From: Escherichia coli
Lineage (GTDB): Bacteria; Pseudomonadota; Gammaproteobacteria; Enterobacterales; Enterobacteriaceae
Assembly (NCBI RefSeq): GCF_003334335.1
Contig: NZ_QOWQ01000014.1
DNA length: 64,000 nucleotides
Strand: one strand, 5' to 3'
The notes beneath the pieces were generated by a model, which had not been told where the DNA came from, searched no databases, and was given only the letters and a program-made list of their open reading frames with translations. Shown in pieces: positions 45,545 through 48,127 of the stretch. The translations under genes and the position numbers were made by a program. Numbering within the stretch: the stretch's first letter is position 1; each line of letters opens with the position of its first letter.

Positions 45545-46834
45545 ATGACGCGCCGTGCTATCGGGGTGAGTGAAAGACCGCCACTTTTACAGACAATCCC
45601 GCTTAGTTTGCAACATTTGTTCGCCATGTTTGGTGCAACCGTCCTGGTGCCCGTCTTATTTCATATTAACCCGGCGACTGTACTGTTATTTAACGGTATT
45701 GGAACGCTGCTGTATCTCTTCATCTGTAAAGGGAAAATTCCGGCTTATCTTGGTTCCAGCTTTGCCTTTATTTCACCGGTATTGTTACTGTTGCCGTTAG
45801 GGTATGAAGTCGCGCTGGGCGGCTTTATTATGTGCGGCGTGCTGTTCTGCCTGGTTTCTTTTATCGTGAAGAAAGCGGGGACCGGCTGGCTGGACGTGCT
45901 GTTTCCACCTGCGGCAATGGGCGCAATCGTTGCCGTCATCGGTCTGGAGCTGGCGGGCGTAGCTGCCGGTATGGCGGGTTTACTCCCGGCTGAAGGGCAA
46001 ACGCCAGACTCCAAAACCATCATCATCTCTATTACCACCCTGGCGGTCACGGTTTTAGGTTCCGTGCTGTTTCGTGGTTTCCTGGCAATTATCCCGATTT
46101 TAATTGGCGTGCTGGTGGGGTACGCGCTCTCTTTCGCAATGGGAATTGTCGATACCACGCCGATTATTAATGCTCACTGGTTTGCGCTGCCAACCCTCTA
46201 TACGCCGCGCTTCGAGTGGTTTGCCATTCTGACTATTCTGCCAGCGGCGTTAGTGGTTATTGCCGAACACGTAGGGCACCTGGTAGTAACGGCTAATATC
46301 GTCAAAAAAGATCTGCTGCGCGATCCAGGTCTGCACCGTTCGATGTTTGCTAATGGCTTGTCGACCGTGATTTCCGGCTTCTTTGGCTCTACGCCAAATA
46401 CTACTTACGGAGAAAACATTGGCGTGATGGCGATCACCCGTGTTTACAGTACCTGGGTTATCGGCGGGGCGGCGATTTTCGCTATCCTGCTTTCCTGCGT
46501 CGGTAAACTGGCTGCCGCTATCCAGATGATCCCATTGCCGGTGATGGGCGGCGTTTCGCTGCTGCTTTATGGTGTCATCGGTGCTTCCGGTATTCGTGTT
46601 TTGATCGAATCGAAAGTGGATTACAACAAAGCACAGAACCTGATCCTGACTTCCGTGATTTTGATCATCGGCGTCAGTGGCGCGAAGGTAAACATCGGCG
46701 CGGCGGAGTTAAAAGGTATGGCGCTGGCGACCATCGTCGGTATCGGCTTAAGTTTGATCTTCAAACTGATCAGTGTGCTGCGCCCTGAAGAAGTGGTGCT
46801 GGACGCAGAAGACGCGGATATAACAGACAAATAA
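45545..46834 (+). CDS. uraA: Uracil:H+ symporter UraA (NCS2 family)
   Basis: ORF 45503..46834. Start trimmed to ATG at 45545 ([33 protein letters not shown]...) for 429 aa. Confidence 0.95.
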
Positions 46835-46928
46835 TGTACCGACCGGGCAGTGTTGCTGCCCGGTTCAAACATCATGGGATTCTGTGGTAAACTTCTCGCG
46901 ATTTTGTGAAATCCTGGTTGAGGTATCT

Positions 46929-47630
46929 CTGAACACACCGGCACAGCTCTCTTTGCCACTTTATCTTCCTGACGACGAAACCTTTGCAAGTTTCTGGCCG
47001 GGGGATAACTCCTCTTTACTGGCCGCGCTGCAAAACGTGCTGCGTCAGGAACATAGCGGTTACATCTATCTCTGGGCACGCGAAGGCGCGGGGCGCAGCC
47101 ATCTGCTGCACGCGGCTTGCGCGGAATTGTCGCAGCGTGGCGATGCGGTGGGCTATGTCCCGCTGGATAAACGCACCTGGTTTGTTCCGGAAGTGCTCGA
47201 CGGTATGGAGCATTTGTCGCTGGTCTGTATCGACAACATTGAGTGTATTGCAGGCGATGAGTTGTGGGAGATGGCGATTTTCGATCTCTACAATCGAATT
47301 CTGGAATCGGGCAAAACACGGTTGTTGATCACCGGCGATCGTCCACCGCGGCAGTTGAATCTGGGATTACCGGATCTCGCGTCGCGACTCGACTGGGGGC
47401 AGATCTACAAATTGCAGCCACTTTCTGATGAAGATAAGTTGCAGGCGCTACAGTTACGCGCGCGTTTGCGTGGTTTTGAACTGCCGGAAGATGTGGGGCG
47501 TTTCTTGCTGAAGCGGCTCGACAGAGAAATGCGCACGCTATTTATGACGTTGGATCAGTTGGATCGTGCGTCGATTACCGCGCAACGTAAGCTGACCATT
47601 CCGTTTGTGAAAGAAATTCTGAAGTTGTAG
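46929..47630 (+). CDS. hda: DnaA-inactivating AAA+ protein Hda; probable non-canonical CTG initiation
   Basis: ORF 46884..47630 starts at a GTG. The known 233-aa product begins at the in-frame CTG at 46929-46931 ([19 protein letters not shown]...). Confidence 0.88.
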
Positions 47631-47644
47631 ATAAGGTGTTTATT

Positions 47645-47738
47645 GTCGGATGCGGCGCGAACGCCTTATCCGAACTACGCGAAGTTAATCCATAGTATTC
47701 GTAGGCCGGATAAGACGTGGCAAGCGTCGCATCCGGCA
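47645..47738. repeat. BIME with two REP palindromes between hda and yfgD
   Basis: gtcggatgcggcgcgaacgccttatccgaactac at 47645..47678 and gtaggccggataagacgtggcaagcgtcgcatccggca at 47701..47738. Confidence 0.7.
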
Positions 47739-47767
47739 ATGTGCTTCAACTAGCGATGGAGCACATC

Positions 47768-48127
47768 TTAACCCACGATTTCCAGTACCTGCTCCGGTGG
47801 ACGACCAATCCGCGCTTTGCCATTCGCGACCACAATCGGGCGCTCCATCAGCTTCGGATTATCCACCATTGCCTGAATCAGCGCCTCTTCGCTAAGCGAA
47901 CTGTCAGCCAGGTTCAGTTCTTTATAAAGATCCTCTTTCTGGCGCATCAATTCACGGGCGCTATTCATCCCCAGTATTTTCAGCAAATCGCGCAGCGTTG
48001 CCGCATCGGCGGGTGTCTCAAGGTAGAGCACCACTTCTGGCTCCACGCCGTTTTCTTTCAGCAGGTTCAGCGTTTCCCGGCTCTTTGAACAGCGTGGGTT
48101 ATGGTAGATTTTTACCTGTTTGGTCAT
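47768..48127 (-). CDS. yfgD: ArsC/Spx-family thiol-reductase-like protein YfgD
   Basis: ORF 119 aa, MTKQVKIYHNPRCSKSRETLNLLKENGVEPEVVLYLETP... Confidence 0.88.
   Translation of the reverse strand: MTKQVKIYHNPRCSKSRETLNLLKENGVEPEVVLYLETPADAATLRDLLKILGMNSARELMRQKEDLYKELNLADSSLSEEALIQAMVDNPKLMERPIVVANGKARIGRPPEQVLEIVG

Follow-up and report, generated by a model that had tools for sequence, protein, structure and literature searches.

Does translation of the hda gene of Escherichia coli begin at the first canonical start codon of its longest open reading frame, or at a CTG codon that lies inside this frame? The question was addressed on a 64,000-nucleotide stretch of E. coli DNA (contig NZ_QOWQ01000014.1), referred to below as the window, in which the gene order is upp-uraA-hda-arsC-bepA. 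Sequence comparison showed that positions 46780-47700 are identical to the genome of K-12 MG1655, and the region is present in all 5426 complete E. coli genomes. The longest hda frame runs from GTG 46884 to 47630 and encodes 248 amino acids (aa). The nearest upstream in-frame stop is TAA 46821, and GTG 46884 is the first ATG, GTG or TTG to follow it. Codon 16 of the frame is the in-frame CTG at 46929-46931, from which translation yields a protein of 233 aa with the C-terminal end EILKL. A previous sequence-only reading of this DNA had assigned initiation to that CTG and not to the GTG of the longest frame; its coordinates and arithmetic are exact, and the assignment is backed by annotation, published profiling, crystal numbering and comparative analysis. 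The best explanation of the evidence as a whole, with a probability of about 0.95, is that hda is translated from CUG 46929 into 233-aa Hda under the control of a strong, invariant Shine-Dalgarno (SD) sequence, and that the 15 upstream codons are non-coding. The features under discussion are collected in Table 1.

Table 1. Features of the hda start region and coding sequence (positions in the window)
Feature	Position	Strand	Remarks
GC-rich hairpin CCGGGCAG-tgttg-CTGCCCGG	46843..46863	+	directly 3' of the uraA stop; adjoins the candidate hda promoter region
GTG, first canonical start of the 248-aa frame	46884..46886	+	non-functional as a start; frame broken in most relatives; weak, non-conserved SD-like GGGA
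Candidate extended -10 element TGgTAAACT	46885..46893	+	putative; predicted transcription start ~46900, ~29 nt 5' of CTG
Shine-Dalgarno sequence GAGGT	46920..46924	+	4 nt (46925-46928) 5' of CTG; at -9..-5 in 80/80 + 7/7 species
CTG initiation codon of hda	46929..46931	+	80/80 + 7/7 species; RefSeq CDS start; literature
hda coding sequence, 233 codons + TAG	46929..47630	+	NF005982; identity to PDB 5X06; codon periodicity from CTG onward
Beta-clamp-binding motif QLSLPL, codons 6-11	46944..46961	+	counted from CTG; numbering as in PMC5397184
In-frame TTG, codon 9, start of the 225-aa database form	46953..46955	+	non-functional; inside the clamp-binding motif; TTG in 41/80 species

The CTG start of hda is already known: it was demonstrated by experiment in 2008, and the reference annotation includes it, so the assignment is correct and ordinary. 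In that year Su'etsugu et al. reportedly located the CUG start of hda 3' of the annotated codon, and the weak codon is said to have been suggested by them to restrict Hda to ~100 molecules per cell. In the MG1655 record NC_000913.3, hda (b2496, NP_416991.2) occupies 2618075..2618776, with a length of 702 nt, and its first base corresponds to window position 46929. K-12 hda and that of the window are the same gene, alike in DNA, CTG start, 233-aa product and residue numbering, with no difference between them. The same CTG start and 702-nt coding sequence are found in three other RefSeq E. coli records (NCBI pipeline, WP_001307333.1). The article on EcoGene 3.0 (PMC3531124), with reference to Su'etsugu 2008 (J Biol Chem 283:36118), names hda as the earliest case of an E. 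coli gene with a demonstrated CTG start. The profiling of initiation sites that the sequence-only reading had proposed as a check exists already. The supplement of Nakahigashi 2016, which is based on tetracycline-inhibited ribosome profiling (TetRP), lists for hda a 2006 start at 2616843 and a 2014 start 45 nt downstream (PMC4909307). There the gene carries the class "3. 2014", which, set against the text of the paper, denotes reads only at the revised 2014 start (PMC4909307).

Public collections hold several versions of the protein. The exact E. coli forms of 248, 233 and 225 aa are each found on at least 1000 contigs, and Hda homologues have scattered N-termini, with lengths of 225, 233, 235, 238, 241, 248 and 258 aa, among others. 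The 248-aa form is the pre-2008 annotation of hda (Kim 2012; PMC4909307). The remark in the sequence-only reading that gene callers usually get this start wrong applies to ab initio callers, the 248- and 225-aa forms being common, but not to current RefSeq, where the CTG start was found in all four records inspected.

The identity of the product was established with protein family models. It matches the NCBIfam Hda equivalog NF005982 with 476.6 bits (cut-off 268) and TIGR03420 with 281.4 bits (cut-off 194.8), and for close homologues the Pfam domains PF00308 and PF22688 (Hda_lid) are on record. On the 248-aa frame the TIGR03420 match covers residues 21-247 and the NF005982 match only residues 14-248, so that residues 1-13 of this frame fall outside the family model. 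The paper on the Hda-clamp crystal gives the protein a length of 233 residues; in its numbering QLSLPL is 6-11, G55/R56/S57 belong to the P-loop, R153 is the arginine finger, the lid spans 165-233, and two tryptophans are W23 and W156 (PMC5397184). All of these residue numbers fit only a numbering based on the CTG: the N-terminal clamp-binding motif, of the pattern QL[SP]LPL, is present as QLSLPL at residues 6-11, and the AAA+ P-loop and Box VII residues G55, R56, S57, S152, R153, D155 and W156 stand at their published positions. The chain of PDB entry 5X06 comprises a 20-residue tag followed by MNTPAQ..., and its residues 21-253 are identical to the Hda encoded in the window. In the crystal the clamp motif is resolved from residue 4, and the RIDA activity, a clamp-dependent stimulation of DnaA-ATP hydrolysis, is described for an identical protein (PMC5397184).

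Comparative analysis included the hda loci of 80 Enterobacteriaceae species and of seven species from other families of Enterobacterales (Yersinia, Proteus, Erwinia, Dickeya, Xenorhabdus, Hafnia and Pantoea). The codon aligned to 46929 is CTG in all 80 Enterobacteriaceae and in the seven others, that is in 87/87 species, and no in-frame canonical alternative is conserved. The layout GAGGTnnnnCTGAA is common to Enterobacteriaceae and to the seven species from other families, where it takes the form GAGGTGCTT-CTGAA. Upstream of the CTG, 46 of the 80 Enterobacteriaceae species have no in-frame ATG, GTG or TTG after the nearest in-frame stop, and this stop is located 4-14 codons from the CTG in 61 of the 80. 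The spacer between the conserved -10 motif described below and the SD sequence differs in length from that of the window by a non-multiple of three in 69 of 81 sequences, which means that the frame of the GTG is not maintained; in a divergent E. coli lineage (L005) a 1-nt insertion breaks the frame of the 15-codon extension. For codons 2-20, which follow the CTG, conservation at the three codon positions is 0.94/0.99/0.79; at 46884-46919 it is flat (0.79/0.78/0.81), with no codon periodicity. Judged by these comparisons, the 15 codons 5' of the CTG are non-coding. On the downstream side, codon 9 is a TTG and the first canonical in-frame start in 41 species; in the remaining ones the first such start is found between codon 11 and codon 38. 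Because its position varies from codon 9 to codon 38, no downstream alternative start is conserved, and the use of the first one would truncate or delete the clamp motif.

A search for an SD sequence 5' of 46929, also among the checks proposed earlier, was positive. The pentamer GAGGT, which is as invariant as the CTG itself, stands at a functional spacing, and its predicted duplex with the anti-SD sequence (-6.9 kcal/mol) is the strongest in the interval 46840-46975. The GGGA located 4 nt 5' of GTG 46884 gives -4.0 kcal/mol and is not conserved, and the sequence 5' of TTG 46953 gives -1.7 kcal/mol, which corresponds to no SD. The predicted folding of the leader together with the start region is no more stable than that of shuffled sequence (z = +1.34), and the leader has no match to an Rfam family.

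Outside Enterobacteriaceae, the SD sequence of the seven species reads GAGGTG, so that a GTG stands in frame ~6 nt, or two codons, 5' of the CTG. The sequence GAGGTGnnnCTG is carried by Yersinia, Erwinia and Proteus, and GAGGTG was found in none of the 80 Enterobacteriaceae. Most of the corresponding database entries are 235 aa long, begin with MLLNTPAQ... and start at the GTG of GAGGTG. Since this GTG sits inside the SD sequence and no separate SD precedes it, the 235-aa forms outside Enterobacteriaceae are probably mis-calls of the same CTG start.

GTG 46884 shares its last two bases, TG, with a conserved motif of the extended -10 type. The motif TGnTAnACT occurs in 80/80 Enterobacteriaceae, 33-39 nt 5' of the CTG and within variable flanking sequence, and the looser TGnTAnnnT occurs in 7/7 of the other Enterobacterales species. 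From this pattern we infer an assignment of the hda promoter. Because the GTG overlaps the candidate -10 element, it is probably located upstream of hda's own transcription start; if the motif is indeed the hda promoter, transcription would begin at ~46900 and the GTG would be absent from the main hda mRNA. A consensus scan of 46700-47100 for sigma-70 promoters and terminators called neither, the putative promoter being missed because of a poor -35 region. The list of transcription starts of Kim 2012 contains none near 46900 and gives for hda only a start with two reads, 620 nt upstream and inside uraA, an assignment that was made on the old 248-aa annotation. No hda entry was found in the Rend-seq, ROSE and Romero 2014 supplements, and a literature search revealed no published hda transcription start or paper on the hda promoter. 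An overlap of a DnaA box with the -10 region was also considered, and the pattern TTWTNCACA had no match near hda.

Two further elements were observed in this region. An out-of-frame mini-ORF of 11 codons with an ATG start (46874-46909, plus strand) covers the GTG as well as the -10 motif; it is probably meaningless, since its ATG has no SD sequence and is not kept in other species. The hairpin behind uraA is conserved and has nine pairs, four of them with compensatory double changes according to RNAalifold on 81 sequences. It probably serves uraA as a terminator, or else forms a structure at the end of the transcript; leaky termination or stabilisation of the transcript end may be its role. 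The terminator scan missed it because it lacks a proper T-run.

Several alternatives to initiation at the CTG have to be weighed against these data. If GTG 46884 were the main start, Hda would be a protein of 248 aa. In the longest frame no canonical start precedes this codon, GGGA with its -4.0 kcal/mol duplex is found 4 nt 5' of it, and the form it yields is abundant in databases and was that of the pre-2008 annotation. However, the frame that it opens is disrupted in the 69 spacers of altered length and is closed by stops 4-14 codons from the CTG in 61 species; no codon periodicity is seen 5' of the CTG, neither the solved structure nor the family model includes the extension, the TetRP signal is confined to the revised start (PMC4909307), and the insertion in lineage L005 breaks the frame within E. 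coli itself. A 248-aa main product is thus very improbable. More room is left for dual initiation, with the CTG as the principal start and a minor isoform of 248 aa made from GTG 46884 on transcripts reading through from uraA. The hairpin 3' of uraA has no T-run and may terminate poorly, so some read-through is possible, and a weak transcription start inside uraA has been assigned to hda (Kim 2012). A read-through transcript would include the GTG, and the frame is open in E. coli, this strain included, behind a weak SD-like sequence; traces of a 248-aa form are therefore possible, and TetRP did detect dual starts in other genes (PMC4909307). Nevertheless, hda itself was classed with signal at the revised site only (PMC4909307), and the extension is not conserved even inside Escherichia, for which reason any 248-aa product would be non-functional noise. 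For the hairpin's sake a small probability is kept for such a trace product, and dual initiation is on the whole improbable.

Initiation further downstream, at TTG 46953, would give a protein of 225 aa. TTG is a canonical start codon and the 225-aa form is present on at least 1000 contigs, but the codon has no SD sequence (-1.7 kcal/mol), is TTG in only 41 of the 80 species, and its use would remove QLS from QLSLPL, a motif that is resolved in the crystal from residue 4 (PMC5397184). Codons 2-8, which this start would leave untranslated, show coding-type conservation. The 225-aa reading is accordingly given next to no probability, and CTG 46929 stands as the start of hda.

For initiation at the CTG the following mechanism is proposed. 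GAGGU, lying in an unstructured leader 4 nt 5' of the CUG, would set the 30S subunit on CUG 46929, and this near-cognate codon would be read by the initiator tRNA as fMet, giving the 233-aa protein. The 15 codons by which the longest frame exceeds that of the CTG would then represent leader and promoter DNA. In reporter assays the rate of initiation at CUG is ~1-2% of that at AUG (bioRxiv 10.1101/063800), and such weak initiation would keep Hda scarce, consistent with the proposal attributed to Su'etsugu et al. Hda is an AAA+ protein that is held on the DNA-loaded beta clamp by its N-terminal QLSLPL and stimulates the hydrolysis of DnaA-ATP there. The CTG is invariant across the order although a single transition or transversion would turn it into a canonical start, which would argue for selection on weak initiation; the dosage rationale is likewise an inference. 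A broader reading joins these elements: the GTG would be part of the hda promoter; promoter, short leader, GAGGU and CUG would form a module that is unchanged throughout the order, its weak start being selected for low-copy Hda; and the 235-aa forms outside Enterobacteriaceae would be mis-called. This joint reading has odds slightly better than even.

A near-cognate start is shared by yfjD (corB), the second confirmed CTG-initiated gene of E. coli (EcoGene 3.0, PMC3531124). Its CTG was predicted from conservation and inspection of the ribosome-binding site, and was confirmed by start-codon mutagenesis (PMC3531124). The gene and its protein are unrelated to hda. To our knowledge, no dosage rationale has been proposed for yfjD. 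Another case is infC, encoding IF3, whose AUU start is, as proposed for hda, a conserved non-canonical codon limiting the expression of a dosage-sensitive protein. In contrast to hda, the weak codon of infC is part of a feedback loop, since IF3 discriminates against AUU; we know of no feedback loop of this type for hda.

Some observations concern the 3' part of the locus. An RNA 3' end antisense to hda is listed at MG1655 2618272 (+) in the supplement of a 3'-end mapping study (bioRxiv 10.1101/2020.07.18.207399). It maps to ~47433 on the minus strand of the window, inside hda, and presumably marks the point at which the convergent arsC/yfgD transcript ends after entering the 3' part of hda. 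The hda-arsC intergenic region (47638-47772) contains palindromic repeats of the REP/BIME type, which gave sub-threshold matches to the Rfam family naRNA4 (RF02564); at 28-31 bits they stay below the gathering score of 59.5. The gene 3' of hda (47768-48127, minus strand) is named arsC, a glutaredoxin-type arsenate reductase, by the NCBI pipeline, whereas the curated MG1655 annotation has 'putative oxidoreductase YfgD', and the two functions disagree.

The dosage of Hda determines the speed of DnaA-ATP inactivation following the start of replication. The correct N-terminus also matters in practice, as the clamp-binding motif occupies residues 6-11. Older work with the 15-residue extension involved other residue numbers and a less active protein. 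For E. coli the start is settled, and what value is left concerns annotation. Mis-called starts account for many of the public Hda entries with 248, 241 and 225 aa and probably for those with 235 aa, and the invariant GAGGT-N4-CTG provides a simple correction rule for Hda starts across Enterobacterales.
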